A stretch of 64,000 nucleotides of DNA, taken from the NCBI GenBank assembly GCA_964409875.1, contig CAYPEN010000002.1, forward strand, positions 210,630 to 274,629, given 5' to 3'. The DNA is from an uncultured Gammaproteobacteria bacterium. GTDB taxonomy: Bacteria; Patescibacteriota; Microgenomatia; Levybacterales; GWA1-39-11. Below, piece after piece: positions 38,409 to 60,786 of the stretch (the stretch's first letter is position 1; each line of letters opens with the position of its first letter). The notes beneath the pieces were generated by a model that saw only the letters and a program-made list of their open reading frames with translations, was not told where the DNA came from and searched no databases. A program made the translations under genes and the position numbers.

Positions 38409-39500
38409 ATGAAAGTAACTCTTCTACCCGAAAACGTTACGGTTTTTGCAACACTTCTTAATAAAATTATCCCCTCACACTCTCAACTCCCGATACTATC
38501 AAATCTTTTAATAGAAGCTGCAGAATCAAGTCTTACTATAAAAGCAACCGATTTAGAAATGGGGGCTCAGGTGAAAATTGCAGCAAAAATTGAAGAAGAT
38601 GGTGCAGTAACCGTACCGGGAAAAGAATTCTTAGAGGCAATTACGTCCCTTCCAAAAGACAAGACAACCATAAGTCTTGAAAAGGATACTCTTGTTGTTG
38701 TCTGCCGGGGGAACAAAATGTCTTTCAATACTATCCCTAAAGACGAGTTTCCTCAACTTTTTAAAGAAAAAGGGGTTGAGGTAGATAGGTTTATGAGGAA
38801 AGAGTTTGTTGAAATATTTTCTTGCTTAATTTTTTCGGTATCAGCAGAGGAAACAAGACCTCAGCTAAGCGGAGTGTATGTCGACAAGAAGAAGGGGTAT
38901 GTTAATTTTGTCTCAACAGATGGATATAGAATGTCTGTTAAGAGAGTTGTGCGAAAGGATGGTGGGGGTGAAAATATTATTGTTCCGGTTGGGTTGATTG
39001 GTGAGGTGATTGCTTTAAAGGGTGAGGATGAGATCGTTTTGTATGTGAATAAGGATGAAAATCAGGTTCTTTTTGAAGTAGGGGATGCGGTAATTGTGGG
39101 CCGAATGATAGAGGGGGCCTTTCCGGATTATGAAAAAGTTTTGCCTGGAAACACAATTACAAAAGCGACAGTTAATAGGGAAGAGTTTTTTCAGAACGTA
39201 AAACTTGCTTCTGTTTTTGGAAGGGAAAACAGCAATATTGCCAGTCTTGAAGTTGTTGGGGACACCTTGAGGATTTCGACACGGACCCAAGGGGTAGGTG
39301 AGGGTGAGGTTTCTGTAGAGTGTGTTAAAGAGGGGGAAGACAATAAAATATCTTTTAATATCAGATATTTGCTGGATGTGTTGAAGAATATGTCTGTTGA
39401 GGATGTTGTTTTAGGTCTTAACTCTGCTGTTGAGCCCGCTGTTTTTACGACAAAAGAAGGGGATTTCTCTCATGTAATAATGCCCATTCAGGTTGACTAG
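38409..39500 (+). CDS. dnaN: DNA polymerase III beta sliding clamp
   Basis: 363 aa immediately after dnaA/oriC. Three-domain beta-clamp-like sequence ('LSGVYVDKKKGYVNFVSTDGYRM'). Confidence 0.85.
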   Translation: MKVTLLPENVTVFATLLNKIIPSHSQLPILSNLLIEAAESSLTIKATDLEMGAQVKIAAKIEEDGAVTVPGKEFLEAITSLPKDKTTISLEKDTLVVVCRGNKMSFNTIPKDEFPQLFKEKGVEVDRFMRKEFVEIFSCLIFSVSAEETRPQLSGVYVDKKKGYVNFVSTDGYRMSVKRVVRKDGGGENIIVPVGLIGEVIALKGEDEIVLYVNKDENQVLFEVGDAVIVGRMIEGAFPDYEKVLPGNTITKATVNREEFFQNVKLASVFGRENSNIASLEVVGDTLRISTRTQGVGEGEVSVECVKEGEDNKISFNIRYLLDVLKNMSVEDVVLGLNSAVEPAVFTTKEGDFSHVIMPIQVD

Positions 39501-40537
39501 TCTATTGCAGGTAGATATACCGTAATCGGGGTTTTTGTATCTTTAATAAGCGCGTTTCCTCTAAATATGAAAATTGGAAAAAGTAATGCGTCTCTTCCAC
39601 TATTGAAATAACCCACCTCAACAGAGGCGAAAACAGTTTTGGTAGGGGCTGCTAGTTGGGGCTGCTGATAGTCGGCGCCAAGGCCGACAATTATGCCTTT
39701 CCCGCTTTTTATTGACTCTTCGGCTTGGGTTAGTGGCGGAAGGAGGATGGACTTTTGGGGTACGTATTGGGGGGTGTAGAAATACGTAAACTTCTTTATA
39801 AGACCATCTTTTGTGAGCCAAACGTGAGTTGAGGCAGAGCTTCCATACTGGCGAAAAACCGTAAGACCTGAAACAACTTCCTTGAACGCAATATCTATAA
39901 GGTTTGCTTCCGTTTCGGAGTTAGCCTGCGTAAGGTCTCCTGTTTTGTTGGAAAAATACTTAACAGTGGCTTCATTTTTGTCAAAAGGGAGGTTAAGAGA
40001 CGTAATGAAATCAGACGCCTTTTTAATAAGAGATGCAGTGTCTGTTGTGGGTGCCGTGGGTGAGGTTTTTTCCTCGTCCGAGTAGGAGATGGTTCTGGAA
40101 TAAAGGTAGATAGATAATGTCTTTGCACCTTTTTGCATAAAGAGGACCTGTCCGTTGGGAGTATTTATTATGCGCTCAGACCCACCTGTTATTAGTTTTT
40201 CCTGTATTTTTGCAATGGTGTCCGCCGGGATGCTTGTGGGGGCCTGTGTGTAGATTTGACCCGTTGTGGGAATATTTTTTGTCTGATAGTCGAAAAATAT
40301 TTCCCCCAGTCGGTTGCCTTCCACCGCGGCAGCGCTGTCGATTTGTAATTTTGTGGAAGATGCTCGGTTGTTACTGTTTGTATCGATGGGAACAAGCGTG
40401 GGGGTTGGAGTGTTTGCGCTTCTTTGAACTGGTCCTTTTTTTACGAAGACACTAACAAATAAAAGCACTATAAAAACCACCACAAACAAAAAGGAGATGG
40501 TAAGCCTTTTTTTTAATGACAAAAATCCTTCAGACAT
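39497..40537 (-). CDS. hypothetical membrane-anchored protein with Thr/Pro-rich linker (T4SS-like locus)
   Basis: 346 aa, N-terminal TM 'ISFLFVVVFIVLLFVSVFV'. Overlaps the M23 gene end. Confidence 0.4.
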   Translation of the reverse strand: MSEGFLSLKKRLTISFLFVVVFIVLLFVSVFVKKGPVQRSANTPTPTLVPIDTNSNNRASSTKLQIDSAAAVEGNRLGEIFFDYQTKNIPTTGQIYTQAPTSIPADTIAKIQEKLITGGSERIINTPNGQVLFMQKGAKTLSIYLYSRTISYSDEEKTSPTAPTTDTASLIKKASDFITSLNLPFDKNEATVKYFSNKTGDLTQANSETEANLIDIAFKEVVSGLTVFRQYGSSASTHVWLTKDGLIKKFTYFYTPQYVPQKSILLPPLTQAEESIKSGKGIIVGLGADYQQPQLAAPTKTVFASVEVGYFNSGRDALLFPIFIFRGNALIKDTKTPITVYLPAID

Positions 40538-40538
40538 G

Positions 40539-41111
40539 TTAAATTGAGCCTGGATTACAGGGAATATTGAAAGGTGGATCCGGGTCGCAGTTTGAGGGAG
40601 TGATTGGTTCGGGAATGTAGGGTGGTGCCATGGGTGCGCCCCTTAATTCAAAATGCAAATGGGTCCCAGAGGAAACCCCCGTTGTTCCCATGAGCCCAAT
40701 TTCGTCACCTTTTGAGACGTTTTGACCAACTGAAACCTCAATTACCGACAAATGTCCATATAGGGCAATTACCCCTTCGCTGTTTTTGATTTGCACAGAG
40801 TTGCCGTATCCACCCCAGCCCCTACTGCAATCTCCATCAGCCGAGCAGTCATGAACTTCAGAGACAATGCCGTCAAAAGCACTGTGCACAGGAGGGGAGC
40901 CCGTGTTGGCAATATCTAGTGCGTTTAGATGGAGAGGTCCATGGTCGGTACCCCCTTCCGGACCTTGGGTTATTATTCCCGTTGTGGGCCATCCTCCGTC
41001 TCCACCCTTAGGTGTTCCTACTTTTGTTCTGACAGAGCTCGTTTGGGCGACAACAACGGTAGCACAGGAAAGAAACATAAGAGGCGCTATAAGCAGCAAA
41101 AACCGTTTCAT
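40539..41111 (-). CDS. M23-family (LytM) peptidoglycan endopeptidase, secreted
   Basis: 190 aa, signal peptide. 'GHLSVIEVSVGQNVSKGDEIGLMGTTGVSSGTHLHFELR' is the M23 HxH/His motif. Confidence 0.8.
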   Translation of the reverse strand: MKRFLLLIAPLMFLSCATVVVAQTSSVRTKVGTPKGGDGGWPTTGIITQGPEGGTDHGPLHLNALDIANTGSPPVHSAFDGIVSEVHDCSADGDCSRGWGGYGNSVQIKNSEGVIALYGHLSVIEVSVGQNVSKGDEIGLMGTTGVSSGTHLHFELRGAPMAPPYIPEPITPSNCDPDPPFNIPCNPGSI

Positions 41112-41806
41112 TATTTATATAGATATTTAATAGTTACAGAATTGGGGTCAATATTTTTGCTCGCAATATATTCACTGACACTTTTCTTTGCTTTTTCAAA
41201 TTGCTCCGTAAAAGAAAGGGGGGAGGTTGCGTCGTATTTAAAGTGCATAAGGTACATGTTTTGGTCATGGTCAAATTCGAGCAGATAAATAAGGGTCTCG
41301 TGCGGAAGGTGGTTTGCAAGAGCCGTGTTGTTTGTTGGGAGGGGGGTTGGTGAAGGCGCTTCGCTCAAGTAAGACTTCTGGAGGATGCTTTGCCCCCGAA
41401 GGGTAAGCGTAAGGGTGTAGGTTGTAAACGGTTCGATTGCTTTTGTGGCTGTTGCCGTAATGGTATTCTTATTGTTGGAAATAGAGAGGGGAATTACTGT
41501 TTTTTCTGCAGCATTTGAAGGAGGGGAAGATGTCAGTTGTGTTGTTATAAGCGAGGGGTCAAGAGCGCTATCCAGCATTATCGTAAATGTTTGGTTCTGA
41601 TAACTTCTAAGAGGCTGTGCTGAGTCGGGTAAAACCGATTTTATAAGCGATGTAGTTGTGTCCTTTGGAACCCTTTTTTGTACGGAAACGGTAGTGGGGG
41701 GCTCTTTTTTTAATGATGAGACGAAAAGAAACAGTACGGTTAAGACGGCAAGCGAGGCAATAACTCCTCCAATGTAAAATAGTTTTTTTGCCAACGGTTG
41801 CTTCAT
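41111..41806 (-). CDS. hypothetical membrane-anchored protein (possible VirB8-like scaffold)
   Basis: 231 aa, single N-terminal TM. Overlaps both neighbours by 1-4 nt. Confidence 0.35.
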   Translation of the reverse strand: MKQPLAKKLFYIGGVIASLAVLTVLFLFVSSLKKEPPTTVSVQKRVPKDTTTSLIKSVLPDSAQPLRSYQNQTFTIMLDSALDPSLITTQLTSSPPSNAAEKTVIPLSISNNKNTITATATKAIEPFTTYTLTLTLRGQSILQKSYLSEAPSPTPLPTNNTALANHLPHETLIYLLEFDHDQNMYLMHFKYDATSPLSFTEQFEKAKKSVSEYIASKNIDPNSVTIKYLYK

Positions 41807-43287
41807 ATCCCTTTAAATTTCTTGTAAAAGCTAGTAAAATTTCCGCGCGCCGGGTCGTTGTGGTCGTTTACATGGCATATGGGTGCATACATTTCATAAG
41901 CATATACAAATGCGTCGGTGTAGATACAAGTATTTCCTATGCTGCTCGGAATTTCAAGCGACCCTCCGACATTATTTGTTTCAAAAGTGCTCATTAATTG
42001 GTTTAGGCTTCCCGCCGCGCACGTGACATTTTCCGTAAAGCCTGCGTCGGAGGGATTAAGACAACCGAAGGGGTAGGTTGCTGCGGTGTCAAACCCGGAT
42101 TCGGTGCCCCAAATCGATGCAAGAATAAGCGGATTAACATTGTATTGAACGCCTGCATCGTAAATTTGCCCCAGGTTGGCCTCTTTTCCCGCGAGGGGAA
42201 GTCCTGACGAATTTGCAATAATGCTTGAGATAAAAGTTGCTCTGTCGCCAAGAACATTGGTATTTCGTCCTTGCCCGACAACGAGCGCTAAAAATTCCGG
42301 CGGGTCACCCGTTGGGCTTCCGGTTCCACTCCCGGTGCTTGCCCCCGCGGCAAGTTTTGCAGATATTACGTTGTTGATGTAGGTGTCCTCCGCCGTAGGG
42401 TGGAGGATTACTTTGAAGGGTTTTTGGTTGCCTGGTTCTTCAAGAGACCATGTCACAAGAGTGGATGTTGAGTCTGTGGCTTGTATTCCGTCGGTCAAAA
42501 CAAACCTAGCATTGGCGGGTACGGCATCAACGAGAATTATTTTTTCAACCGGAATTTTCCCTACGCTTGCGTCATAAGTGTAACTTACCGTGTATTCAAT
42601 ATCTTCCCCGTTGTTGATAGAAGTAGGCCCTGAAAGGGTAAGGGTAAGCCCGGGAATTTTGTTTGCTTGGCTGGATCCGCCGGGGAGGGAGGAGGATGTG
42701 GGGGTTTGACTCGTCGAGTCGTCATTGTCGGAAGAAGAAGAGCCTTTAAAAAAGAAGAAATATATCAGGATGATGCCCACCACAATTAATATGGCAGCAA
42801 TTACCCAGGGAGCTATGGCAGCGCCCCCCGCTGCAGCTGCTCCACCGGCTGCTGCTCCTCCTGCCGCTGCTCCTCCCGCCGCTCCGGCTGCTGCTGTGCC
42901 ACCTGCAGCAGCGCCCCCGGCCGTTGCGGCACTGCCTGCAGCGCCCGCCGCTTCACCAGCCGCTGCTGCTCCTTGCGCTGCGCTGCCCGCAGTCTCAGCC
43001 GCTGTGCTTGCTCCTTCCGCGGCTTGGGATGCGGATTTTCCTTTTCTTGCCCAGTTAAGAATATTTCTTGCTCTATTGCCGGAGTCTTTTAGATTTTGGA
43101 GCGAGCTGCTTGGGTCTTGTGATTCTTCTTTCTTTTCTTTTTCCGTATCTTCTTCGGGAAGACCAAATGGTTCTTCTGGGTTTTGCAGTTCTTCTTTTTC
43201 TTCTTCTTCCTCTTTTTCATCCTCCTCATCTTCCTCAAGGGGTTCATCTGGTTCTTCTTGCCAGGGAGGAGGGGTGTCGTTTTTCAT
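41803..43287 (-). CDS. VirB1-like membrane-anchored lytic transglycosylase with acidic N-terminus and Ala/Gly-rich tract
   Basis: 494 aa. C-terminal 'VNPLILASIWGTESGFD' resembles the SLT-domain catalytic E-S motif. TM 'IAPWVIAAILIVVGIILIYFFFF'. About 80-residue (A/G)n repeat. Confidence 0.5.
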   Translation of the reverse strand: MKNDTPPPWQEEPDEPLEEDEEDEKEEEEEKEELQNPEEPFGLPEEDTEKEKKEESQDPSSSLQNLKDSGNRARNILNWARKGKSASQAAEGASTAAETAGSAAQGAAAAGEAAGAAGSAATAGGAAAGGTAAAGAAGGAAAGGAAAGGAAAAGGAAIAPWVIAAILIVVGIILIYFFFFKGSSSSDNDDSTSQTPTSSSLPGGSSQANKIPGLTLTLSGPTSINNGEDIEYTVSYTYDASVGKIPVEKIILVDAVPANARFVLTDGIQATDSTSTLVTWSLEEPGNQKPFKVILHPTAEDTYINNVISAKLAAGASTGSGTGSPTGDPPEFLALVVGQGRNTNVLGDRATFISSIIANSSGLPLAGKEANLGQIYDAGVQYNVNPLILASIWGTESGFDTAATYPFGCLNPSDAGFTENVTCAAGSLNQLMSTFETNNVGGSLEIPSSIGNTCIYTDAFVYAYEMYAPICHVNDHNDPARGNFTSFYKKFKGI

Positions 43288-43289
43288 GG

Positions 43290-45434
43290 TTAGCTACTTT
43301 GTTGCAATGGGTTTTGTTGGAGATTTTGGACCGGTTGGGGTATGCCGGGAGAAGGTGGGGGTAGTGGTGAGGGGGAGGCGGACGTTGAGAGAATTGGTGG
43401 GTTTTGAACAAATTGTTGCACTGTGGGAGCCGGCGGTTGTGTTGGTGGGGTTTGTGTGATGGGTTGGATCGCAGGTGGCATTTGTTGTGGGAACGGCTGG
43501 AGTGGTGCCTGTTGTTGTGGCTGTGGGACTGCCGGACCTGCTAGGGGATCTTGTGGCGTGGGCTCTACGGGGGGTTGCGGATTTTGTACCTCGTTTTGCA
43601 TGGTGTCTTGAGGTTTTGAGGTGACAAGGTCGTATTCAAACTGGGACGCGACGAATTGTGCCGTAACGTGGTTTTGCCCTGCAAAAAGAAGACCTTCGCC
43701 CACTTGGGCTGTTAGGAGATACTGCTTTTCTCCCTCTGACAGGTTGAGGGTTTTAGCAAGCGCTTCAACTTCGGAAGAGCCCTGCTTTAGAAGTATTTGC
43801 ACAGAAGAGCTTGAAAGAATAGCTTTTCCATAATCTGAAGAAAGGAAGTCCTCAATATCTTGCGTAAGGGTGGTGAGTCCCAGGTAGTATTTTCTGCACC
43901 TCTTTGCAATTCCCTGCAAAAATGCGGCCGAATCCGGGTAGCGCATCATGTACCACGCCTCATCAACAATGAGGATCCTTTTCTTCATTTTTGTTCTGAC
44001 ACGAGTCCATATAAAGTCCAAAATAACGTGCATTGCAATTGGTCGCAACACATCTTCTAATTGTCTCAAGGAAAAGACGGTGAGTTGATTTCTTACATCG
44101 TAATTTGTCTGATGGTTAAAGAGGCCTGAAAATCCGCCTTTGACATATTTTTCAAGCCTGAAGGCCAGTTCTTTTGCGTCTGCCTCTTCCATGTTGAGAA
44201 GCGTCTTGTATAGGTCTTCAAGAATCGGTGGCTCATTTTTATATGTTGATGGGTCTGGAGATATCCCTTTTTGTTTATAGGCAAGAACAATTGCGCGGTC
44301 CAATATTGCTTCTTGGGTGGCCGACATTTCGCCCATCATGGTTTTTAAAAGCCCATGCACCGAAAGTATTTTTACCCCTAGTTGCGCTTCTGATTGGTCA
44401 TCGGGAAGTAGGGCAAAGGGGTTAATTTTTATCTCAGAGTCTTTTGAAAAAGAGATGTATTCTCCTTCAAGAGATTGGCAGAGCACCTTGTATTCGTCCT
44501 CGGGGTCGATAATGAGAACCTCAGTGTCAAACATCATTTGTCGCAGCACTTCAAGCTTCACAAGAAAAGACTTCCCCGAACCTGATTTTCCAAAGACAAC
44601 AGAGTTGGCGTTTTCAAAAGAGAACCTGTCAACGATGACTAGGGAATTATTAAGCGTGTTTATCCCATAGAGAATTCCATTGGGGTGAGAAATTTCGTAG
44701 GAGGTGAATGGAAACGTGGAGGCAACCGAGGTTGTATCCATGTTCCTTGTGGAGAACAATTTGTCATTTCCAGTAGGAAGGGTGGTTTTGAACCCATCCT
44801 CCATCTGAAGGGTGGCTGGCTTTATGATAAGCAGATTTGATGAGAGAAGCGACATCAGCTCTTTCGAGCGGAGGTTAAGATCTTCTATGTCTTGAGAGGC
44901 AAGTGTTACATAGAGCCCAAATTGGTAGAAGCGCTCAAGGCCCCGCGCCAATTCTTCGCGAAGGGCAATTGCGTCTTCTAGTTGGGCGCGGATTTTGGGA
45001 TCGGGTTCGAGCCCCTGCTGGGTATCTGACTCAATAGTGGCCTCCATTTCGGCGATTTTTCGTCTCAAATTTGAGAGAACATCCTTTGACTCGACTGGGT
45101 AGATAAACATTGAGATATTCATGGTCTCTTTGTAGTCGATAAGAATTGAAAGCCAATTGGGGGAAACCTGGCGGGGATAATCAACGACAAAAAAGGTGCG
45201 GTAGTAGGTGTCCCCTACGCGAATATGTTTGAAATCCACCTCAACAGAAGAGGGGGCAATTATGTCGACTATTGATACCGAACCCTGCTTTAGCGCTTCA
45301 GTTGTTTTGGCATTAACGGGTGGTTTTGCCGGAGCCTGCTGTGCTGCCGGGGCCGTTGTCACCGGAGGAGTCTGTCCCTGAACGGGGGTAGCCGGAGCGG
45401 GTTGTTGTGTTGGTTGTTTTTTCTTTCCGAACAT
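43290..45434 (-). CDS. VirB4/TrbE/PrgJ-family type IV secretion ATPase with Pro/Gln-rich C-terminal tail
   Basis: 714 aa. Walker A 'FGKSGSGKSFLVK'. Walker B 'ILIVDEAWYMM' (DEAW is the VirB4 hallmark). N-terminal 'YYRTFFVVDYPRQV' CagE/TrbE/VirB4 signature. Confidence 0.8.
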   Translation of the reverse strand: MFGKKKQPTQQPAPATPVQGQTPPVTTAPAAQQAPAKPPVNAKTTEALKQGSVSIVDIIAPSSVEVDFKHIRVGDTYYRTFFVVDYPRQVSPNWLSILIDYKETMNISMFIYPVESKDVLSNLRRKIAEMEATIESDTQQGLEPDPKIRAQLEDAIALREELARGLERFYQFGLYVTLASQDIEDLNLRSKELMSLLSSNLLIIKPATLQMEDGFKTTLPTGNDKLFSTRNMDTTSVASTFPFTSYEISHPNGILYGINTLNNSLVIVDRFSFENANSVVFGKSGSGKSFLVKLEVLRQMMFDTEVLIIDPEDEYKVLCQSLEGEYISFSKDSEIKINPFALLPDDQSEAQLGVKILSVHGLLKTMMGEMSATQEAILDRAIVLAYKQKGISPDPSTYKNEPPILEDLYKTLLNMEEADAKELAFRLEKYVKGGFSGLFNHQTNYDVRNQLTVFSLRQLEDVLRPIAMHVILDFIWTRVRTKMKKRILIVDEAWYMMRYPDSAAFLQGIAKRCRKYYLGLTTLTQDIEDFLSSDYGKAILSSSSVQILLKQGSSEVEALAKTLNLSEGEKQYLLTAQVGEGLLFAGQNHVTAQFVASQFEYDLVTSKPQDTMQNEVQNPQPPVEPTPQDPLAGPAVPQPQQQAPLQPFPQQMPPAIQPITQTPPTQPPAPTVQQFVQNPPILSTSASPSPLPPPSPGIPQPVQNLQQNPLQQSS

Positions 45435-45453
45435 ATATTAATAGGTTGTTAGA

Positions 45454-46152
45454 TTAAAGTATGACGTTTTGGACATCCTGTGAATTAAAATCGACCGTTA
45501 TCGTATCATTGTTGAGTATTTCATAAAAAAGTTTTATCAATTCTTCGTGTTGAAGTGGACGGGCAGAAAGCCCCATTCTTTCAACCTGAGCCTGAATAAC
45601 TGAGCGTTTCGAAATGAGAGCATTTTTTGCTTGGTCTGCAAAGGTGCCTGTTTTTGTTTGCTGTTGGGGTTTTTGTCCTGGGGGAGTAGTGGTTTGTGCT
45701 CCCAGAGTTCCCTCAAGATACGAATAGGGAACGACAATATAAATCTTTTTATCCAAAAGTCCCTCATTTTTTACAAGTTCGTCGATGAATTGCCGGTACA
45801 TTGCCAAGTGTTCTTTTATCCGCTGGTTCTGTAGGTCGTCAATTTTTTTATCCAAAAGCTTAAGGTAGTTTCCCATATCTACCCGTTTTGAAATAATGAG
45901 GATTTGTATAGCAAAAGAAAGAGAATTAATAAGTGACATATATCCATAAATTCGTGCGTTTTGCTCATCTGCTGATAAAAGAAAGAAATTGACTGAAGAG
46001 ACTTCCAAAACAGAGCAGGCATTTTTACCTTTAAACAACACAACATCATCGACGATATCAACTATTTCTGTAAAGTCTTGCGTTGTTGAGTGTATTTTGT
46101 CTTTTTTTGCCATATTTTTATACCGCCGCTTGTGGAGCCGGCGTATTGCCAA
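45454..46152 (-). CDS. hypothetical protein between the VirB3-like and VirB4 genes
   Basis: 232 aa, no clear motif. Overlaps the upstream gene by 35 nt. Confidence 0.4.
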   Translation of the reverse strand: MAIRRLHKRRYKNMAKKDKIHSTTQDFTEIVDIVDDVVLFKGKNACSVLEVSSVNFFLLSADEQNARIYGYMSLINSLSFAIQILIISKRVDMGNYLKLLDKKIDDLQNQRIKEHLAMYRQFIDELVKNEGLLDKKIYIVVPYSYLEGTLGAQTTTPPGQKPQQQTKTGTFADQAKNALISKRSVIQAQVERMGLSARPLQHEELIKLFYEILNNDTITVDFNSQDVQNVIL

Positions 46153-47595: not shown

Positions 47596-47934
47596 ATGGC
47601 GCTGTCGCATGAGCAAAAGGAAATACTTTTTAAGAAAATTTTAGACGTAATGCAAATGGGGGCAGAAGCCGGTGCTCTCGAGCAATACGAACTAAATGAC
47701 ATTTCAGAGTATTCACTCAAGCGTGCAAATGAATTGAATAGCGAAGGAGAGATTCGAATGTTTTATGAAGAACTTTCTGATAGGTGGCCTGTTTTTGGGA
47801 TCCTCTTAGAAGAGGAAGACAGTAGGGTGAAAGAAAGGGCTGAGGAAGAGGCTACTGAAGGCGCAGCCACACTTCTTCAGCATGGGAAAATAGATGAAGC
47901 GCTTGCGTTAGTTAAAAGCGCTACCACAACTTAA
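47596..47934 (+). CDS. hypothetical acidic protein
   Basis: 112 aa, Glu-rich. Confidence 0.35.
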   Translation: MALSHEQKEILFKKILDVMQMGAEAGALEQYELNDISEYSLKRANELNSEGEIRMFYEELSDRWPVFGILLEEEDSRVKERAEEEATEGAATLLQHGKIDEALALVKSATTT

Positions 47935-47936
47935 AT

Positions 47937-49925: not shown

Positions 49926-49935
49926 GGTGTCTACC

Positions 49936-51398: not shown

Positions 51399-51731
51399 TT
51401 AGCCAAGCGACAAATTAAATAAGTCAACTTTAAAGACTTGTCCTAAAAAGTTTATTACAAAAAAAGCAAGGAAGCAGATAAGAAGCCCGAAAAGAGCGTA
51501 AATAATGGTGCGCCTTGAGCTTTCAATCTTTTGTTTGTCTCCCTCCGACCATATCCACGTAAGAGCGCCCCACACAATGAATCCAAGCGAGAGAATAATG
51601 GCTGCAATAAGAATAAGAGCCAGCCCAAATCCGATTATTTTTCCTCCGCTTCCGGAAAGTCCTTCGGTCGGAATACCGGAGGGGGCGGGAACGGGAGTTC
51701 CATTAATGGAAAGTGAAAGTAATTGTTTCAT
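51399..51731 (-). CDS. T4SS pilin-like protein, paralogue 3
   Basis: 110 aa, 'IVWGALTWIWSEGDKQKIESSRRTIIYALFGLLICFLAFFVINFL'. Confidence 0.5.
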   Translation of the reverse strand: MKQLLSLSINGTPVPAPSGIPTEGLSGSGGKIIGFGLALILIAAIILSLGFIVWGALTWIWSEGDKQKIESSRRTIIYALFGLLICFLAFFVINFLGQVFKVDLFNLSLG

Positions 51732-53270: not shown

Positions 53271-54593
53271 TTAATCCTCGAATTTATATCCGCGGCCCTT
53301 GAGGGTTTGGATGTAGTGCGGGTGATTGGGGTCTGCTTCAATTTTCTTCCTGAGCCTGTAGATTATTTGGTCAAGCGCCTGGTCGGTTACCCCTTCTTGG
53401 GTCTTCGTGTCTTTCCAGGTGGCTGTTATAATTTCATCCTTTGTGCAAATGCGTCCTTTGTTTTCAAGTAAGAAAAGTAATAGTCTAAATTCGGAAGGGG
53501 AGAGAAGGTCAGATATAGGCTGTCCTCCTTTTGTGATTTCGTTGGTGTTGGGGTCTATTTCAATTTTTTCCGTTGTTGATATGGAAAGGTTGTTGATGAA
53601 CTCTGATAAAAGGCCAATTTGAATAACCCCGTCTTTTATGAGGCCGGAGTACGTCAAAAATTCAGGAATTGGCTCCTGAGTTTTCTTTGTCAAAAATAAC
53701 TTGAGAAAAAGCTGCTCTGAAGGGAGAAGGCTTAGCCAAATTTCGTACAATGCTCCTTGTACTGCTGTTTTTTTAAGGAGGAAAGAAGAAAGTATTCCCT
53801 GAGGTATTTCGCTCAATATAGCCTCGTATGAGGCCCGTGTTAATTTGCCGTGCCCTCCGGTAAGTGCAATAAGCTCTTTTTTGAGCGCTTCATCGGCTTT
53901 TTTCCCTGTCGTTTTCTCCAAGTACGAAAGCCGGAATTCCATGCCAGTCTTGTCATACAGGTTGACGTACACAAAGTTGCCGACGACAAAATCATAAAAA
54001 TCAGAAAAAAGAGTTGGTTCCAAAAGCTCCTCAAGGGGTCTTCCGACAGCAAAAATACATGAAAACCTATATTTTGCCCTGTTTCTTAATATCTTTAAAT
54101 TGTTGAAAAACTGACTTGTCACTTCGGGAATATAGTCATGGAAACGGTCAAGAGAAAAAACGACCGTCAGTTCTTTTTCTTCACAGAGAAAATCAATACT
54201 TTGCTTGAGTGCTTGAAAAAGGATGAGCTCGTCATGAAAAGGAAGAGCTTCTTTAGTAAATGTATTAATCCGTTCTGCCTCTTCAACAAGTCCTCTTTCG
54301 TTAAGCGAGTATGAAAGGGAAATGAGGAAAAATTTTGTGGTATCAAGAAGCGTTCTTTCTTTTAGCTCCGAGCAATCAAGGTAGACGAAGTGAACATATG
54401 GTTCAAGCTCTTTTAGGTTATGAAGGCGAACCTCTTTGTTATAAGAAAGAAGGTTGAGGATATTGTTTTTTCCACCCCCGGGAAGCCCGATTAGTTGCAT
54501 AGAAAGGCCTTTTTTGATGAAAGGGACCAGGGAGGAAATTTCATGCTCGCGGGTTGTTGGTGGATAGAGGCTTTCAAAATGTTTGACTTGCAT
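53271..54593 (-). CDS. transcriptional regulator: N-terminal AAA/ORC-like NTPase domain plus C-terminal OmpR/PhoB-type winged helix
   Basis: 440 aa. P-loop-like 'LIGLPGGGKNNILNLL'. C-terminus 'LLSPSEFRLLLFLLENKGRICTKDEIITATWKD...ALDQIIYRLRKKIE...IQTLKGRGYKF' is a clear trans_reg_C signature. Confidence 0.6.
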   Translation of the reverse strand: MQVKHFESLYPPTTREHEISSLVPFIKKGLSMQLIGLPGGGKNNILNLLSYNKEVRLHNLKELEPYVHFVYLDCSELKERTLLDTTKFFLISLSYSLNERGLVEEAERINTFTKEALPFHDELILFQALKQSIDFLCEEKELTVVFSLDRFHDYIPEVTSQFFNNLKILRNRAKYRFSCIFAVGRPLEELLEPTLFSDFYDFVVGNFVYVNLYDKTGMEFRLSYLEKTTGKKADEALKKELIALTGGHGKLTRASYEAILSEIPQGILSSFLLKKTAVQGALYEIWLSLLPSEQLFLKLFLTKKTQEPIPEFLTYSGLIKDGVIQIGLLSEFINNLSISTTEKIEIDPNTNEITKGGQPISDLLSPSEFRLLLFLLENKGRICTKDEIITATWKDTKTQEGVTDQALDQIIYRLRKKIEADPNHPHYIQTLKGRGYKFED

Positions 54594-54699
54594 ATATCAA
54601 TTGTACCTCAAATGAGGCCTCTTTTGTTGATGTTTTGTGAGCATTTTGTAAGGCAAACGTCAAGGTGAGAGGCGTCTTCTTTATTACAATTAGCGCACT

Positions 54700-57600
54700 A
54701 TGTCAGAACAAGAATATTCCTATCTTTCTTCTCAAAACGAGGCTGCATTGACAAAGAAAACGGTGAACCGTACACTGAAGAGTACAGCAAGTCCCCGTAT
54801 GGAAGAAGATCAGGAAGATATAAAAAAGGTCACGAAAAAGATAAAGGATATTGTCCGGGAGAGACAGCGCCGTGGTATCAGTGCTGACCAAGCGGCTGCT
54901 TCAAAAACGGTGTGGGAGACGATGCTCGGAAGAAAACTTACCGAGCAGGAGTCAAAAACAACTGTTGAAAAAGGTTCCCCCCTGGGTCCTGAGAACGAGC
55001 CGACAAAAGAGGAGTTGGGAATTGTTGAGAAGATAGTCAAAAATCAGAAAAAGTACGAGGACCTTATTAGTTCTACCAAAACTTATACCCCCGAGCAGTT
55101 GCGCCAAACCTTTTCGGGAGATTTGGGGAAAATCGTCACTATTATGCTGACTGAGGGGGTGGTTGGTGAGGAGAGGTATTTACACGACCTCAATGAGACA
55201 ATTGCAAAAAAAGGGCCGCAGATGCACCAGGAGGTAGCCGATATTGTCAAGAAAATCGAGCAAGATGTAGCGGAGAGAAAAAAGCAGGAAGCATTGGAGG
55301 AGGAGAAGCGCATGAAACCTGAGGGGGTTGACCTTCGAAAAGAAAAGGTGCGGGAGGCATGGGATAAGCATTTGGAGGAAAAAAGGAAAAGGGGCGAGCA
55401 GATAACAGAAGAATATTTAAAGCGGGCTAACGAACAGATAGATAGGGGAATAATGCCAAACAATGGGCCGGAGGGTGGGTTTTCAACGTTTGATTATGAC
55501 AAGTATGACAATGTTGAGCTGCGGGTTTTAGGAATAGAGCTGCGTACCCTTGGAGAGACAAATCAGTTAGATGAGAAAGTAATCCAAAGGCAAATTGGAA
55601 GGCTGAACCGCTTACTCGCTGAAAGAAAAATTACCGAACAAGAATTCAATACATTTAGAGCAGATTTAGGAGGGAAATTACAACAATGGCTCGGCGAGCG
55701 AGAGAAGGGGCTTGGTGTTTCACCAGAGCTTAACAAGCAGGACAAAAGCCAGGCGGAAAACAATGCAAAGGAAAAATTGGAATCCGCCATTGCCTCAATT
55801 CGTGGTGACGAGGAAAAAGCACTATTTGAGCAAAAGAAGAGGGAAATTCTTACTGATGATCCTATCGACCTATTGATTACAGAGCACATAAAAGATACGG
55901 AGTTGGCAAATGAGATAAAAAGAGAGTGGCTCGGGCTTCAAGAGGTAGAGAATCCGGCGGAGTTTAAGGAGAGGACAAAAGCGCTCATTGAGAAAGTGCT
56001 GGCGATAAAGCCACCCGAGGAGGAGAAGGAGGGGTCATCAAAAAGTGACGCCGAACTTGCCGAAAAAGCGGAAAAAAAGGGATTGAAGTTCAACAGTATC
56101 TATCAGGAAGGGATTGAACAGGGATGGTTTGACCCGGACCTTTTGAGAACTGAGCCGCGAAGCATCGTGGACTTGGCCAAATGGATTATGATAACTGATG
56201 ATGCCCGCATTTGGGGACCAGAGGGAGACCATCCGCTTTTTATGGTAAAAAAAGTCGGTGTCCCAGAAAGAGATCCTGCAACCGGTGAGCAATTGAGAGA
56301 TAAAAACGATAAGCTCATATGGAAAGAACAAGCCGAGATCGAATTTCAGTCGGACAGTTTTATTATCTGGCTACGTAATAAGATGATTGAGCTGCATCTT
56401 GATAACTCAACCGACCCCATGAGTCCCCTCACACAAGTTGCGATACGTACGCTCTATAGCCCTGTCAATTTGATTTCAATGAAATACGACAAGCAGCGGT
56501 ACTTTTCAGACCCTAAAACGGGAGAGATTATGGATGACCTTTACAATGAAGTCATTCTTGAAGCCTGGCTTTTCGGCGTGAGGCGCAATAATGACCTTGC
56601 GTACCGTCAGGCAATGAATAGTGACGACAAGCTTTTTGAGACAATGGTTGGACTCAATTCCAAAAATGAGCACACAAATTCCACAAACGCTGCAGATTAT
56701 TACTCAATGGCCGATAAATATGTGAGAGGATACGATGAGAATGGGAGGGAAAGACAAAGGGATACGAAAGTTGGAGACGCTATTCTTTTATCAAACGCAT
56801 TATACCGGAATATTTCAGATATTGAAAAACTGCGTCAACTTCTGCCTTCTGATAGCCCACTTTTTACCCGCGAGGGGTGGGAAAATGCAGTACGGATAAT
56901 TCAAGGGAAGGGACAATGGGAGCAAGTTAACGAGTATGCCAACATGCGGTTCGATGCAAATAGGGTGTATGTAATTGACCCTGCAACCAAGCAAGAGCAG
57001 GTAATTTTTGACGAGAACGGAAAGCTTAACGAAGCAAATTTCATAAAATATCTCAACTTCTTTGTTTCACCAACCTCTCTTCAGACAAATGTCGCTCACG
57101 TTAGGGAGCTTGTAAAACTATCTATTGCCAAAGAAATCGGTCTTGATGACGGTCTTTCATATCCTCCCGACGAAGAAACATGGGATAAAGAGGAGCAGCA
57201 GGCAAAAAATGAGAGGCGAAGTATATCTATTAAAGGAAGACGGAATACAAAGCGCATCAATTTGGAATTTGCTGAAATCAATTCATATGTTGAGCAGCGG
57301 TGGAACGGGGCGGCCGCGCGCTCAGATACAAATGTAAGAGGGTATGACGCATGGACAAAAATGTTTGCGCAAAGATATAGGGAGAGACAGTCAGGAATTG
57401 ACACAATGGGGCCGATTGGGAACCCAAATGATATACCAATTCTTAAGCAGCTTGCACCCGATATGTGGCTTGCGCTAAAGACTGAGAATGGAGAAGTAGC
57501 TCAGGAAGTATTCGAGAAGATCTTGAGCGTTATTCCAAGACTATATAAAGAGGCAAAGACAGATGAGGAACGCGCTCAGGTGCAGGAGCTTCGCAATAAA

Positions 57601-58431
57601 CTTATCAGTACGCTTCGCTTCCCTGAGGGGACACAACTTGATTGGGCGTCTAACCAAGTGATGAGAGCTGCAAATGTGTGGCATGCGATGCTTGACACGG
57701 AGGACCTTGGGTTTAACAAGCTTGTAACGCGCAATGTATGGGGCGTTTTGCAGTATAGTAGGGCAGATTTTGAGAAAACAGTAAAGGACACATTTATCAA
57801 AAACAGGCGGTATGCGTTCAAGTCAAATAACGCTCTCAATTACGGTGCAAAAGAACGGGTGTGGGTGGGGGAGAAAGATGGGGTACCAATCTACAAAGAG
57901 ATGACGGTGGCAGAATATATGTTCGGGCACAATGTGACCGCTCCTCTTATCGATGACTGGTATGACGGGAAAGCAAAAATAAAAAAAAGAGTTAATCCAA
58001 CAACAGGAAAAGTAGAGGATGATGTTACTTATAAGGGGGCGCAGCTTGAGGAATACCTGGCAAGCTCTGAGGGGAGAAACCATTTGTTTAAAAACGTCTG
58101 CCGGGCGGGTCTTGCCGCACAATTGAAGGCGCACAGCAATTGGCAGGGGACTGGGGAGCGGTGGAGCAATTCTATGGTAAGGAATTTCGTAGACTCACTC
58201 AAGACGCTGCGGGCATATAAGGAAGAACCCCCGGGTAGCGGAAATGAAGTGGTAGACACCTCAAAAGGTGCCTTTTTTTCCCAGGAGGATATTGATTGGA
58301 TTTTGGAGCAGGCCGGACGTCAGAAGTGGAGAATGGCCCTCGAAGATGCAGCAGTTACGGGAATAGATTTGAGTAAAAGTATTCCAGAACTTCTAAAAGC
58401 ATTTATGGGTGGGATTGTGGATTTCTCTTAA
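54700..58431 (+). CDS. giant hypothetical protein (1243 aa), charged/coiled-coil N-terminal third
   Basis: Single uninterrupted ORF. No signal peptide or NTP-binding motif. Divergent from the regulator gene. Confidence 0.5.
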   Translation: MSEQEYSYLSSQNEAALTKKTVNRTLKSTASPRMEEDQEDIKKVTKKIKDIVRERQRRGISADQAAASKTVWETMLGRKLTEQESKTTVEKGSPLGPENEPTKEELGIVEKIVKNQKKYEDLISSTKTYTPEQLRQTFSGDLGKIVTIMLTEGVVGEERYLHDLNETIAKKGPQMHQEVADIVKKIEQDVAERKKQEALEEEKRMKPEGVDLRKEKVREAWDKHLEEKRKRGEQITEEYLKRANEQIDRGIMPNNGPEGGFSTFDYDKYDNVELRVLGIELRTLGETNQLDEKVIQRQIGRLNRLLAERKITEQEFNTFRADLGGKLQQWLGEREKGLGVSPELNKQDKSQAENNAKEKLESAIASIRGDEEKALFEQKKREILTDDPIDLLITEHIKDTELANEIKREWLGLQEVENPAEFKERTKALIEKVLAIKPPEEEKEGSSKSDAELAEKAEKKGLKFNSIYQEGIEQGWFDPDLLRTEPRSIVDLAKWIMITDDARIWGPEGDHPLFMVKKVGVPERDPATGEQLRDKNDKLIWKEQAEIEFQSDSFIIWLRNKMIELHLDNSTDPMSPLTQVAIRTLYSPVNLISMKYDKQRYFSDPKTGEIMDDLYNEVILEAWLFGVRRNNDLAYRQAMNSDDKLFETMVGLNSKNEHTNSTNAADYYSMADKYVRGYDENGRERQRDTKVGDAILLSNALYRNISDIEKLRQLLPSDSPLFTREGWENAVRIIQGKGQWEQVNEYANMRFDANRVYVIDPATKQEQVIFDENGKLNEANFIKYLNFFVSPTSLQTNVAHVRELVKLSIAKEIGLDDGLSYPPDEETWDKEEQQAKNERRSISIKGRRNTKRINLEFAEINSYVEQRWNGAAARSDTNVRGYDAWTKMFAQRYRERQSGIDTMGPIGNPNDIPILKQLAPDMWLALKTENGEVAQEVFEKILSVIPRLYKEAKTDEERAQVQELRNKLISTLRFPEGTQLDWASNQVMRAANVWHAMLDTEDLGFNKLVTRNVWGVLQYSRADFEKTVKDTFIKNRRYAFKSNNALNYGAKERVWVGEKDGVPIYKEMTVAEYMFGHNVTAPLIDDWYDGKAKIKKRVNPTTGKVEDDVTYKGAQLEEYLASSEGRNHLFKNVCRAGLAAQLKAHSNWQGTGERWSNSMVRNFVDSLKTLRAYKEEPPGSGNEVVDTSKGAFFSQEDIDWILEQAGRQKWRMALEDAAVTGIDLSKSIPELLKAFMGGIVDFS

Positions 58432-58437
58432 GTTCTG

Positions 58438-60786
58438 TTACGATGTTCCATCGGGAGGCGGTTGGCTACGGTGGGTTGCGATAATATCAGAAGTTACTTC
58501 TCTGATTTTACTTCTAATATCCTCACTCATGCTTGTTGCTCCTGCTATGTTTCCATGGTGTTTTCCCACGGCTTCCCGCACCGCTGCCTCAATTTGCGCC
58601 AGCTCATCGTCACTAAATCCACCAGTTCTTTGAGCCTCATCCCGCACTGAGACATTAATTTCCTGATTGATTATATCTGAGGTCGGAACGGGCGTTGTAG
58701 GTGCTCCTGTCCCTGTTCCGGCAGTGGCTGTTGTCCCCCCCGCCGCTGTAGCGGCAGCTGTCCGCGTTGACGCTGCATGGGCAGCTGCTTCCTCCGGAGT
58801 CATTCTATCCCAATGCGCTTCTGATTTGTGAATGGTGTGTTGACCGGCCCGTGTCTCAATTGTTACCGTGTCATTCTCATTTTCCCAAGCTGTTTCTCCC
58901 CCAATTGTTCCCCTGAACAGGCCGGTTTTCGGATCAGCTGCACCTCTTCTGTCTTTGTATTCATCCAGAGCGCGTCCACTAACCCCCATTCCTTCTGCCG
59001 AGCGCGCATTTGCAGCTAGTGCTGCATTTCTTGCTCTTCGTGTTTTTACACGTTTCCCCATACCAAAGGGAAGTTTGCTTGCGGCGGTTGCAATTGGTGA
59101 AGTAACTGCCTTCACTGCCTTTCCGTTAGAGGCATTTCTAAATCTGTCAAGGTACCATTTCTTGAGTCTCTCAGGAGAGCCATCTTTGGGGTTAGTGTGC
59201 CACAATGCATCTTTCGTCTTTCCGAAAAGCATTCCTCCCACTTTTTGTCCCTGTCCCAAGCTTTGGGCAATTTGCTGTGTGTACTTAAAGCCGGGAGCTT
59301 TGAGAGTCTCACGGACCATCGTAACAACGCTTGGAAGAAGAAGTATTATCCCCAGACCAATAATTGGCCCAAAGCTGTCTATGTCGCCGACATTTCCGAT
59401 AAGGGGTGGCACAAAGGGATGTGCGCTTGCGTCCTGCCCAAATTGTGCGGTGATAATTTTCCCAAGAAGTAAAATGAAAAGTGTTGCGGGAAAAACTGCT
59501 AAATTTGCCACAATATCCCGTAGCCACGAGCCAAATCCGGCACTTGCACCTTTGGGCAAAAGCCCCAGCCCTATCCAAAATGGGGCCAAAATGACATCAA
59601 TGAGAAAAAAGACGTAGGAGCGAAGGAGTAAAAACCACAGCCGGAACATCGCCCACAGGACAGCGATGGTTATTATGATATATGCCAAAAGGCCACCGAT
59701 GACACCTAAAAGTTTGCTTCCGGCAAAAATACCGGCTACAAGACCAATTGTGCCTCCGACGAGTATTCCAGCCGGACCGAAAATAGAGCCAGCGCCTCCA
59801 CCAATCATTGTTCCAACGAGCGATGCGATGACGTGTCCAAACGTGTTGTCAAAAAGAGATGCTAGGATGTGCCCGAAGGGTTTTGCGGCTCCCATCGCAA
59901 TACCACTTGCTCCCCCAAGACCGCCTATTGCCGAAATGGGATTCCCCCCCTGAAGAGAGGAGGGGCTCAAGCCCCCCATATCAACCCCCGAGCCCTGCTG
60001 CGTGTAGCTGTAAAAGAGGTAGTAGACAAGATACATAAGAACATACATCATATCGACAATAAATCCGGCAATTGCGTACGAAAACGTAATAAGGATAATG
60101 CCGATTATTATTTTCGGAAGCTGATTTTGAATGGACATGACGGAGCGTGCATCAACATTGACCCGAAGCATTATTCCAACACCTATGATGATAAAAATGA
60201 TAACCAGGAAAAGGTAGACAATATTTCTAAAAAGTCTCCATAGTCCGATGAGCGGCTTAAGACCCGTATAGCCATATCCTGCTGCAAAAGTGCCGTCGTT
60301 GTCTGCCTTGTCTCCCCCCACATTTACTTGCGTTGCTGCAAGTCCGGTTTTGGTAATACCAAAATGAGAGGCAAGGTCTTTTACATAGGTACTTGAAGAG
60401 ACAGGGATATTAAACGTCATTCCTATCATATTCCCCATAATTCCTATTGCTCCTCCCTGTCCGCCGTCAACGTAGCCTATCTTGTGGGTAGCAGGGTTTA
60501 TTCCCAGACATTTACCTGAAGCAGTCAGCGGGTCATATCCTGTCAAAACGCATGAGATGCTCGTCAAAATTTCTATAAAAACATTTTGTGAATAAGTATG
60601 GAAATTTTGGGGGACGTCACTGTCTGTTTGGAGAGGATACGTATTTTTATTGATCTGCTGAGGAGTTGTGGTGGATTGAGTGGAGGAAGCATTTTGGATA
60701 GGAGGCAAAACCGATTGGGCATGCGCAGAAGGGACGACAACAAGCAAAAGCAGAAAGGAAAAAAGGGCAGTAAGTATTTTTTTCAT
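58438..60786 (-). CDS. polytopic Gly-rich membrane protein, possible VirB6/TrbL-like channel component, with Ala-rich hydrophilic C-terminus
   Basis: 782 aa. Signal peptide 'MKKILTALFSFLLLLVVVPSAHA'. Seven or more TM helices with Gly-rich segments 'GGGAGSIFGPAGILVGGTIGLVAGIFAG'. C-terminal about 250-aa soluble region. Confidence 0.4.
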   Translation of the reverse strand: MKKILTALFSFLLLLVVVPSAHAQSVLPPIQNASSTQSTTTPQQINKNTYPLQTDSDVPQNFHTYSQNVFIEILTSISCVLTGYDPLTASGKCLGINPATHKIGYVDGGQGGAIGIMGNMIGMTFNIPVSSSTYVKDLASHFGITKTGLAATQVNVGGDKADNDGTFAAGYGYTGLKPLIGLWRLFRNIVYLFLVIIFIIIGVGIMLRVNVDARSVMSIQNQLPKIIIGIILITFSYAIAGFIVDMMYVLMYLVYYLFYSYTQQGSGVDMGGLSPSSLQGGNPISAIGGLGGASGIAMGAAKPFGHILASLFDNTFGHVIASLVGTMIGGGAGSIFGPAGILVGGTIGLVAGIFAGSKLLGVIGGLLAYIIITIAVLWAMFRLWFLLLRSYVFFLIDVILAPFWIGLGLLPKGASAGFGSWLRDIVANLAVFPATLFILLLGKIITAQFGQDASAHPFVPPLIGNVGDIDSFGPIIGLGIILLLPSVVTMVRETLKAPGFKYTQQIAQSLGQGQKVGGMLFGKTKDALWHTNPKDGSPERLKKWYLDRFRNASNGKAVKAVTSPIATAASKLPFGMGKRVKTRRARNAALAANARSAEGMGVSGRALDEYKDRRGAADPKTGLFRGTIGGETAWENENDTVTIETRAGQHTIHKSEAHWDRMTPEEAAAHAASTRTAAATAAGGTTATAGTGTGAPTTPVPTSDIINQEINVSVRDEAQRTGGFSDDELAQIEAAVREAVGKHHGNIAGATSMSEDIRSKIREVTSDIIATHRSQPPPDGTS

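Follow-up and report, generated by a model that had tools for sequence, protein, structure and literature searches.

What use does a bacterium make of a conjugation-type secretion machine next to which no relaxase, coupling protein or VirB11 is encoded? We addressed this question for a locus at positions 39497–60786 of a 64-kb stretch of DNA, which was analyzed as a whole and is called the window in the following. The window is part of a Patescibacteria genome, i.e., of an organism that belongs to the Candidate Phyla Radiation (CPR), and stems from an uncultivated, ultrasmall bacterium of the Levyibacteriota. An earlier, sequence-only reading had described the locus as a Gram-positive-type machine resembling type IV secretion systems (T4SSs) and had argued for a non-conjugative use. 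Our analysis confirms the relationship, with an MPF-FATA-like VirB4 ATPase, a TrsD-like and a PrgI-like protein and VirB2-like pilins, and supports the proposed use as probable: the synteny with dnaN and dnaA is fixed, and neither a relaxase nor a type IV coupling protein (T4CP) nor VirB11 is found nearby. We estimate at about 85% the probability that the locus was derived from Gram-positive conjugation machinery (MPF-FATA), became fixed in the chromosome and was put to a non-conjugative use. It is another example of the T4SS published for Patescibacteria and not a new system; Levybacteria genomes were already part of the published survey.

A conjugation-type motor core beside dnaN and dnaA

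The motor ATPase is encoded by virB4 (43290–45434, minus strand) and is of the Gram-positive (MPF-FATA, CD1110) kind. With 408 bits, the protein passes the cut-off (325) of NF045971, the "VirB4-like conjugal transfer ATPase, CD1110 family", and covers positions 177–732 of the 752 in this profile; it also matches PF19044 (E 1e-34). Its nearest relative of solved structure is Thermoanaerobacter VirB4 (4AG5, 2e-45); the Gram-negative TrwK reaches 6e-6. GKSGSGKS and DEAW, given in the sequence-only reading, are both there as Walker A and Walker B motif, respectively. VirB4 lacks the first ~176 profile positions, and its tails are rich in proline and glutamine. The closest homologue, 98% identical, is VirB4 of a Candidatus Levyibacteriota metagenome-assembled genome. 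A species-level genome collection contained 359 confirmed relatives; of the best 80, those with named records belong to Levy-, Beckwith-, Shapiro-, Woese-, Curtiss- and Gottesmanbacteria and other Patescibacteria. Judged by these 359 Patescibacteria relatives, VirB4 would belong in the published Patescibacteria clade.

The adjoining gene (45454–46152, minus strand) codes for a protein of 232 residues that had been taken as an unknown. The gene was correctly recognized, but its product is TrsD-like: it matches N-terminal parts of VirB4 profiles, i.e., positions 92–237 of NF045975 (E 7e-11) and positions 25–106 of NF045971, as well as TrsD/TraD NF041427 (E 5e-7), there with 29.7 bits at a curated cut-off of 200. 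An hhalign comparison of the 232-residue family with our alignment of the VirB4 family was not significant (probability 0.5), though the expected segment was aligned; the NCBIfam profiles decided the matter. Because VirB4 covers profile positions 177–732 and the 232-residue protein matches the N-terminal part, the two genes look like a VirB4 with a separately encoded N-terminal module. Such a module is known as TrsD in the literature.

Next to it lies the gene of a PrgI/VirB3-like membrane protein of 440 residues (46118–47440, minus strand). Its N-terminus (residues 10–88) reaches 28.8 bits with PF12666 (cut-off 27), so that the VirB3/PrgI assignment made from the letters also holds in a profile search. 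A long linker rich in proline, threonine and glutamine follows, and then a C-terminal CarboxypepD_reg-like β-sandwich (PF13620, E 3e-5).

We compared the locus with 80 related Microgenomatia loci, in which virB4 had flanks of up to 10 kb in both directions. The TrsD-like gene adjoins virB4 in 76 of them and the PrgI-like gene lies upstream of the TrsD-like gene in 74; the PrgI-TrsD-VirB4 core as a whole is thus found together in 74–76/80 loci. Downstream, dnaN/dnaA are present in 65–68/80 loci from several candidate phyla, always on the strand opposite to virB4. With the core next to dnaN/dnaA in most of the 80 loci, we conclude that it is passed on as part of the chromosome and does not constitute a mobile element.

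In the window, dnaA occupies positions 36870–38201 and dnaN positions 38409–39500, with the T4SS locus directly after it. The dnaA-dnaN spacer (38202–38408) is a probable oriC. It contains a cluster of DnaA boxes (38206–38381), with perfect boxes TTATCCACA at 38206 and 38308 and boxes with one mismatch at 38228, 38331 and 38373; a further perfect box at 36791 lies outside the spacer. GC skew becomes positive from ~38 kb. The first T4SS gene therefore probably starts ~1.1 kb from the replication origin, as far as this can be predicted from these sequence signals. The minus-strand T4SS core (region 38202–47440) lies just to the right of the DnaA boxes and is transcribed towards them, and hence replication forks would run into the core operon head-on. 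In 65–68/80 loci, virB4 and dnaN/dnaA converge in this way.

The sequence-only reading had emphasized that VirD4, relaxase and VirB11 are lacking. Among open reading frames of at least 250 codons in the window, and in the 10 kb beyond its left edge, we found no VirD4/TcpA-type coupling protein, no relaxase domain and no VirB11. At the locus, there were also no Pfam or NCBIfam matches to VirB5 or to the VirB7/VirB9/VirB10 outer-membrane core. The lack of a coupling protein cannot, however, be claimed for the whole genome: in a table of PMC12102498, two related Levybacteria genomes have VirB2, TrsD and VirB4 side by side, whereas their T4CP-profile hit is hundreds of genes distant. The statement "lacking VirD4" is hence shown for ~74 kb only.

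Envelope proteins, pilins and divergently transcribed genes

Peptidoglycan hydrolases are encoded directly downstream of virB4. The first gene (41803–43287, minus strand) specifies a 494-residue protein with an acidic, Ala/Gly-rich cytoplasmic N-terminus, a transmembrane (TM) helix (residues 162–180), a β-sandwich and a C-terminal domain resembling lysozyme and soluble lytic transglycosylases (SLTs). The VirB1-like SLT assignment of the sequence-only reading found no sequence-profile match but agrees with the predicted fold and an invariant glutamate. The AlphaFold model of residues 200–494 (pLDDT 83) has two domains. Its β-sandwich resembles carbohydrate-binding modules (CBM2/chitin-binding domains), and its helical domain matches phage SLT/GEWL transglycosylases, i.e., CP20 (E 2e-3, probability 1.0) and the PRD1 transglycosylase (E 0.02). 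Glu396 in the motif WGxESGF is invariant across 21 homologues, and the motif is of a nearly invariant E-S-G type. From fold and motif, we regard the 494-residue protein as a candidate membrane-anchored, lysozyme/SLT-like cell-wall hydrolase that may fill the VirB1 role. PHROG matches of this protein and of the VirB6-like protein described below were discarded, since they lay wholly or largely within Ala/Gly-rich or membrane-spanning stretches.

A second hydrolase, the M23 (LytM-type) peptidoglycan endopeptidase (40539–41111, minus strand), is clear from sequence, as had been claimed (PF01551, 79 bits, E 3e-22); it has an N-terminal hydrophobic segment and is secreted. In other Microgenomatia, the M23 domain is fused into a single hydrolase of 700–1056 residues directly after virB4. 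Between the two hydrolase genes lies that of a 231-residue bitopic protein (41111–41806, minus strand; TM helix residues 12–30) with an Ig-like domain and weak Big_5/Big_8 matches. The last gene of the core operon (39497–40537, minus strand) overlaps the dnaN stop codon by 4 bp. It encodes a bitopic envelope protein of 346 residues with an N-terminal membrane helix (residues 14–32), a linker rich in proline and threonine and a C-terminal domain of unrecognized fold; no Pfam, NCBIfam or PHROG family matched it. An iterated profile found members of this family in 49 loci, mostly as the last gene before dnaN. Its sole profile match in the PDB is to the N-terminal TM and Pro-rich part of Xanthomonas VirB10 (6gyb_c, E 2e-4). 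We rejected an assignment as VirB10 because this match is confined to the TM and Pro-rich segment and is probably due to composition. The layout of membrane anchor, proline-rich linker and C-terminal domain is nonetheless VirB10-like. When members of the 231- and 346-residue families were pooled, 10 of 46 matched the Ig-like Big_5 (best E 6e-11), and none of the 46 gave a VirB8 or TcpC signal.

Four VirB2-like pilin paralogues had been proposed, and all four can be retained. Short pilins encoded at 50633–50929 and 50937–51350 (both minus strand) score 40.2 and 40.3 bits with PF18895 and exceed its cut-off of 26.6 bits. The third short pilin (51399–51731, minus strand; 23.8 bits) and a 485-residue "long pilin" (51777–53234, minus strand) stay below the cut-off, with E-values of 5e-5 and 4e-4, respectively; they are tied to the other two by pairwise identities of 27–42% among the paralogues over the C-terminal 85 residues, which form the hairpin. 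The short pilins form two-helix hairpins. The long pilin consists of a signal peptide, a cysteine-rich ectodomain of ~370 residues and a C-terminal VirB2-like hairpin (PF18895 match at residues 411–474). In a HMMER scan, 5847 representative clusters matched it at E ≤ 1e-3, and 59 did so at E ≤ 1e-30. The best 150 matches are mostly 350–680 residues long and aligned through their C-terminal ends. As 79 of 81 long homologues match PF18895, this architecture is widespread and not a one-off fusion. No Pfam model covers the ectodomain, for which no family match was found among the 81 long homologues. It keeps conserved cysteines and the motifs DYFHxG, RNNYQ, KINEQxNE and GGFTYY and is always joined to the C-terminal T4SS pilin hairpin in the homologues examined.

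Beside the pilins, a one-component regulator of 440 residues is encoded (53271–54593, minus strand), for which an AAA domain and a winged helix-turn-helix (wHTH) had been suggested. The wHTH part is firm: the C-terminus is an OmpR/PhoB-type winged helix (PF00486, 77 bits), and PDB matches are restricted to residues 340–440. The AAA part reduces to a Walker-A-like motif, G-x-P-G-x-G-K, which is conserved in 22 homologues together with a motif h-h-D-R-F. By this conserved Walker-A-like motif alone, the N-terminal domain may be P-loop NTPase-like.

At the far end of the locus, a gene of 782 codons (58438–60786, minus strand) encodes an extended polytopic membrane protein with a signal peptide, an ectodomain of ~165 residues, at least seven TM helices and a hydrophilic C-terminal domain of ~290 residues. 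The polytopic nature inferred in the sequence-only reading is thus evident, but its VirB6 assignment found no direct profile match in Pfam, NCBIfam or PDB searches and gains support through homologues instead. There are 638 of these in a large protein database, and two that are ~45% identical (P0059, P0066) pass Pfam TrbL/VirB6 PF04610 (32 bits, cut-off 25.9). Twelve VirB6-like members from the compared loci gave no match when scanned against Pfam. The top PDB match of the structural model is TrwI/VirB6 of R388 (7o3v_G) at a non-significant E of 0.1. Homologues and model together suggest a very divergent VirB6-like protein. Profile searches of PDB sequences with the VirB6-like, 232-residue and 494-residue families yielded nothing useful.

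The VirB6-like gene has its start codon and 5′ leader within a 43-bp tandem repeat of 3.4 copies (60771–60917; Tandem Repeats Finder score 273, 96% matches), which creates three upstream open reading frames of 12 codons (MKKILSVAKDFC followed by stop). The extra copies are absent from two close relatives (L087, L088) with only one copy each, and two Logan assemblies are interrupted at the repeat. Either regulatory variation specific to the strain or an effect of the assembly could account for it.

The remaining genes of the locus are transcribed divergently from the core. The first of them (47596–47934, plus strand) encodes a small acidic protein of 112 residues (isoelectric point 4.5) without family match in Pfam or PHROG. 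It is followed by an E/K-rich protein of 662 residues (47937–49925, plus strand) that has one C-terminal TM helix (618–636) and no signal peptide. Members of the 112-residue family occur in 20 other loci and, in the gene maps inspected, adjoin a member of the 662-residue superfamily; the small protein is possibly a chaperone-like partner of the large one. Among other Levyibacteriota families, hhalign links two to the 662-residue protein (probabilities of 99.5% and 97.8%), and it links no large protein of other Microgenomatia to it.

The third gene of this group (49936–50631, plus strand) encodes a polytopic membrane protein and candidate metalloprotease. Six hydrophobic helices and the motif HELAH agree with the HExxH membrane protein described before, and we corrected its start. 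Nine homologues in the compared loci have 223–234 residues and abut the pilin array in inspected gene maps, so that ATG 49936 (231 residues) is the likely start and not TTG 49792, with which the listed reading frame overlaps the 662-residue gene. With the start at 49936, positions 47596–50631 form a tight three-gene operon. The match to the YydH/LiaK membrane metalloprotease NF058609 (E 7e-4) is far below the cut-off. All other gene boundaries given earlier agree with the list of open reading frames.

Divergently from the regulator runs the gene of a 1243-residue protein (54700–58431, plus strand), which has neither signal peptide nor TM helix. Its N-terminal ~480 residues are E/K-rich and its C-terminal ~760 residues globular. 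We found only six homologues (43–100% identical) in a large protein database. Close relatives (L087–L089) hold a protein at the position of this gene, and unrelated proteins of ~940–1420 residues are found in the same place in other Microgenomatia. For the large opposite-strand proteins, the position is hence conserved and the sequence is not; none has a signal peptide. Profile-profile comparison linked no giant across Microgenomatia lineages or to the 1243-residue protein. From their sequences, both giants, i.e., those of 662 and 1243 residues, appear to be fast-evolving proteins without export signals.

Conservation of these accessory genes was followed in 21 close (Levyibacteriota) loci with enough upstream flank and in 26 distant Microgenomatia loci. 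The pilin array including the long pilin is present in 20/21 close loci, the regulator upstream of it in 17/21, and the acidic protein with a member of the 662-residue superfamily in 12/21. Close relatives with longer contigs share an outer block of VirB6-like protein, a 1247-residue protein, regulator and long pilin. Among the distant loci, 18 of 26 have a VirB6-like gene within 10 kb upstream of virB4 and 24 of 26 an opposite-strand protein of at least 550 residues; the gene after virB4 is the single 700–1056-residue hydrolase, in many with an M23 domain.

Elsewhere in the window, a low-GC stretch at ~5700–27000 (0.33–0.38 compared with 0.39–0.46 elsewhere) begins at a large serine recombinase (5720–7321; PHROG integrase match, E 3e-69). 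It contains a CDF transporter, a DsbD-cupredoxin protein and a copper P-type ATPase, alongside numerous small same-strand open reading frames without family; the stretch probably represents a genomic island. One Logan contig stops at the recombinase and a second just before it. A cytochrome bo3-type quinol oxidase operon follows (28123–32792, minus strand) with subunit II carrying a COX_ARM motif, subunit I, subunit III and a UbiA/CyoE-type prenyltransferase. This operon is notable since, to our knowledge, Patescibacteria are usually portrayed as having no respiratory chain. Many records of Levyibacteriota-like loci (L002–L008 and others) are titled "uncultured Gammaproteobacteria bacterium", and "Candidatus Bathyarchaeia archaeon" and "Nevskiaceae bacterium" occur as titles among L058 and L067. 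For these contigs, such titles are almost certainly wrong, i.e., placeholder names or the result of mis-binning.

Comparison with published Patescibacteria and Gram-positive systems

The locus closely resembles a cluster of the Saccharibacterium Candidatus Southlakia epibionticum ML1, for which Wang et al. (2023, Cell) reported an "apparent T4SS" nearest to Gram-positive conjugative systems, with an essential series of pilins (PMC10633639). That system has no recognizable coupling and relaxase proteins, and protein export or another role was suggested. Its cluster, SEML1_0004–0019, begins directly after dnaA, dnaN and recF and encodes, in order, a small protein, an Ig-like protein, a lysozyme-like protein, a 1113-residue protein, VirB4, a 293-residue protein, PrgI, a 998-residue protein, an NTF2-like protein, a 1088-residue VirB6-like protein and six pilins. 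Nearly all of its genes are essential by transposon sequencing (Tn-seq) for growth on the host; of the three large proteins (998–1113 residues), two are essential at every time point and the VirB6-like one at two of three (PMC10633639).

Both loci start from the replication genes and continue with envelope and Ig-like proteins, the lysozyme-like hydrolase, VirB4, a TrsD-like protein of ~230–290 residues and PrgI, and our 231-residue bitopic protein is the positional counterpart of the PEGA/Ig-like SEML1_0005. The likeness to CPR/Saccharibacteria loci that had been noted before is thereby borne out in the order of the core. Both also have an extended polytopic VirB6-like protein, which is a putative assignment in the present locus, an array of PF18895 pilins and large proteins of unassigned function inside the cluster, and neither has a coupling protein or relaxase there. 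There are differences, too. S. epibionticum has six short pilins, the present locus three short ones and a long one. An NTF2-like (VirB8-like) protein is annotated in S. epibionticum, whereas none was identified here among the 46 members of the bitopic families. The large proteins are encoded on the same strand as VirB4 in S. epibionticum and divergently here. In the published gene rows consulted for S. epibionticum, we saw no regulator, HExxH protein or small acidic protein, all of which are present here. Moreover, the S. epibionticum cluster is backed by essentiality in Tn-seq, whereas the present locus is known from its genes alone.

The survey of Quinonero-Coronel et al. (2025, Microb Genom) described a distinct Patescibacteria clade of VirB4 related to MPF-FATA, with TrsD as the commonest VirB4 partner, VirB2 arrays that are especially abundant in Microgenomatia and loci often close to dnaA/dnaN (PMC12102498). 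Of 5,713 T4CP homologues in 2,918 Patescibacteria genomes, 148 were near virB4. The locus shares with this clade the MPF-FATA-related VirB4, TrsD, PrgI-type VirB3, the VirB2 array, the site near dnaA/dnaN and the lack of a relaxase or T4CP beside virB4. In Microgenomatia, the survey found VirB6 homologues to be scarce and 22.6% of the VirB3 homologues of the class to be near virB4. In contrast, we find a PrgI-like gene adjoining the TrsD-like gene and virB4 in 74/80 loci and, on indirect evidence, a divergent VirB6-like family in syntenic position. Since VirB3- and VirB6-like genes are present and syntenic, the Microgenomatia system is more complete than the profile-based survey suggested.

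The accessory set had been called part of no described system that could be named. This does not apply to the large proteins, which the S. epibionticum cluster also contains. In the main texts of PMC10633639 and PMC12102498, we found no mention of the long pilin, the regulator, the HExxH protein encoded next to the pilins or the pair of a small acidic and a large protein, and giant proteins did not appear in the discussion of the latter.

Gram-positive MPF-FATA conjugative T4SSs (C. difficile CTn/CD1110-type, pCF10 Prg/Pcf, pIP501 Tra, pGO1 Trs) share several parts with the locus, i.e., a VirB4 that passes the cut-off of the CD1110 family, a TrsD-like protein (as in pGO1 and pIP501), a PrgI-type VirB3 and a putative VirB6-like protein. 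Its lysozyme-like and M23 modules are as in the multidomain PrgK and TraG (PMC12102498 and general knowledge). Unlike these systems, the locus has no relaxase, coupling protein or oriT context in the window and is not on a mobile element. It also encodes VirB2-like pilins, which Gram-positive systems lack, and neither an LPXTG-type adhesin nor a VirB8-like protein was recognized in it.

Possible uses of the machine

How could these parts work together? PrgI would anchor the VirB4/TrsD motor in the membrane beside VirB6, while the lysozyme-like and M23 hydrolases would open the peptidoglycan locally. The motor would drive assembly of a VirB2-type pilus, a structure that is unusual in cells with a single membrane (monoderms). 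Contact with a host cell may be made by the long pilin as adhesive or tip subunit, and the P-loop/wHTH regulator may control the adjacent pilin genes. By analogy with S. epibionticum, the machine might serve an epibiotic lifestyle, in which proteins or other molecules are exchanged with the host and DNA is not transferred by conjugation; a T4SS as a pilus-like conduit for exchange with the host has been suggested for Patescibacteria in a review (PMC12857230). More speculatively, the giants without export signals, i.e., the 662-residue protein with its acidic partner and the 1243-residue protein, could be cargo or cytoplasmic accessory factors.

Several points weigh against a derived, non-conjugative machine of this kind. 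For Patescibacteria T4SSs, the function shown so far is essentiality in one Saccharibacteria species only, and the Levyibacteriota are uncultivated and have no known host. The VirB6 and VirB1 assignments are transitive or structural, and their E-values are modest (0.1 for VirB6, 2e-3 to 2e-2 for SLT); no VirB8-like protein was identified among the 46 bitopic-family members. The tabulated T4CP-profile hits in two related Levybacteria genomes (PMC12102498) count here as well. The giants, finally, are tied to secretion only by position, missing Sec signals and fast divergence.

The locus might instead be an ordinary Gram-positive-type integrative and conjugative element (ICE) with coupling protein, relaxase and oriT elsewhere in the genome, by which DNA is transferred to other cells. 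VirB4 indeed scores above the threshold of NF045971, a family whose name refers to conjugal transfer, and the T4CP-profile hits far from virB4 would provide a candidate coupling protein. However, relaxases were found in 103 Patescibacteria genomes only, 15 of them near virB4 (PMC12102498), pilin arrays are no feature of Gram-positive conjugation (PMC12102498, PMC10633639), and in S. epibionticum the T4CP homologue is not essential whereas other T4SS genes are (PMC12102498). The large serine recombinase at 5720–7321 could be taken as the integrase of such an element. We rejected this candidate because housekeeping genes (truB, the cyo operon, clp, dnaA and dnaN) separate it from the T4SS, of which the synteny is ancient: the core is fixed beside dnaN/dnaA in 65–68/80 loci across several candidate phyla, as expected for vertical inheritance. 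We hence consider an ICE very improbable. A DNA-uptake machine like Helicobacter ComB or archaeal Ced, which would take up host DNA as nucleotide source or for transformation, would suit CPR bacteria, as these lack nucleotide synthesis (PMC10633639), and T4SS loci of the class ABY1 adjoin comF, recG and radA (PMC12102498). VirB4 matches the CedB and CedD profiles weakly, but its 39 and 26 bits are far below the cut-offs of 700 and 600, reflect general VirB4 homology only and are accompanied by no match to another Ced or ComB component. There is no competence gene inside the locus, the ComM-like gene at 149–1669 being 38 kb off. Moreover, deletion of comEC in S. epibionticum ends competence and not viability (PMC12857230), and the essential role of the T4SS is therefore not exerted via ComEC-dependent transformation. 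DNA uptake thus seems quite unlikely to us.

Adhesion without translocation would reduce the machine to an attachment organelle. Four pilin genes, one with a large cysteine-rich ectodomain, and a dedicated regulator adjoining them would fit this use, and T4S pili of known systems are mainly attachment organelles (PMC12857230). Yet adhesion is already provided in Saccharibacteria by type IV pili, a different system (PMC10633639), and a putative VirB6-like channel subunit is kept throughout the lineage. Adhesion is also compatible with transport and on sequence data inseparable from the model of a derived, non-conjugative exchange machine. As the sole function, we give it very little credence.

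A more far-reaching version of the non-conjugative machine can be formulated. The T4SS of Levyibacteriota and Microgenomatia might be a self-contained host-interaction module. In it, the divergently encoded giants, one of them paired with the small acidic protein, would reach the host as substrates independently of a coupling protein, the cysteine-rich long pilin would be the host-recognition subunit of a pilus made by a single-membrane cell, and the P-loop/wHTH regulator would act as pilin switch. We hold this to be doubtful. The main value of the present analysis lies in the correct classification of the locus as a known system. The Patescibacteria T4SS is essential in the sole species tested. 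What we add is incremental, i.e., syntenic VirB3- and VirB6-like genes, a widespread family of cysteine-rich long pilins, a conserved P-loop/wHTH regulator and fast-evolving giants without export signals. Long pilin, regulator and giants are lineage-wide accessory candidates for adhesin, switch and cargo, respectively. If the self-contained module proved true, candidates for effectors and for an adhesin of this essential machine would be named for the first time by these loci.

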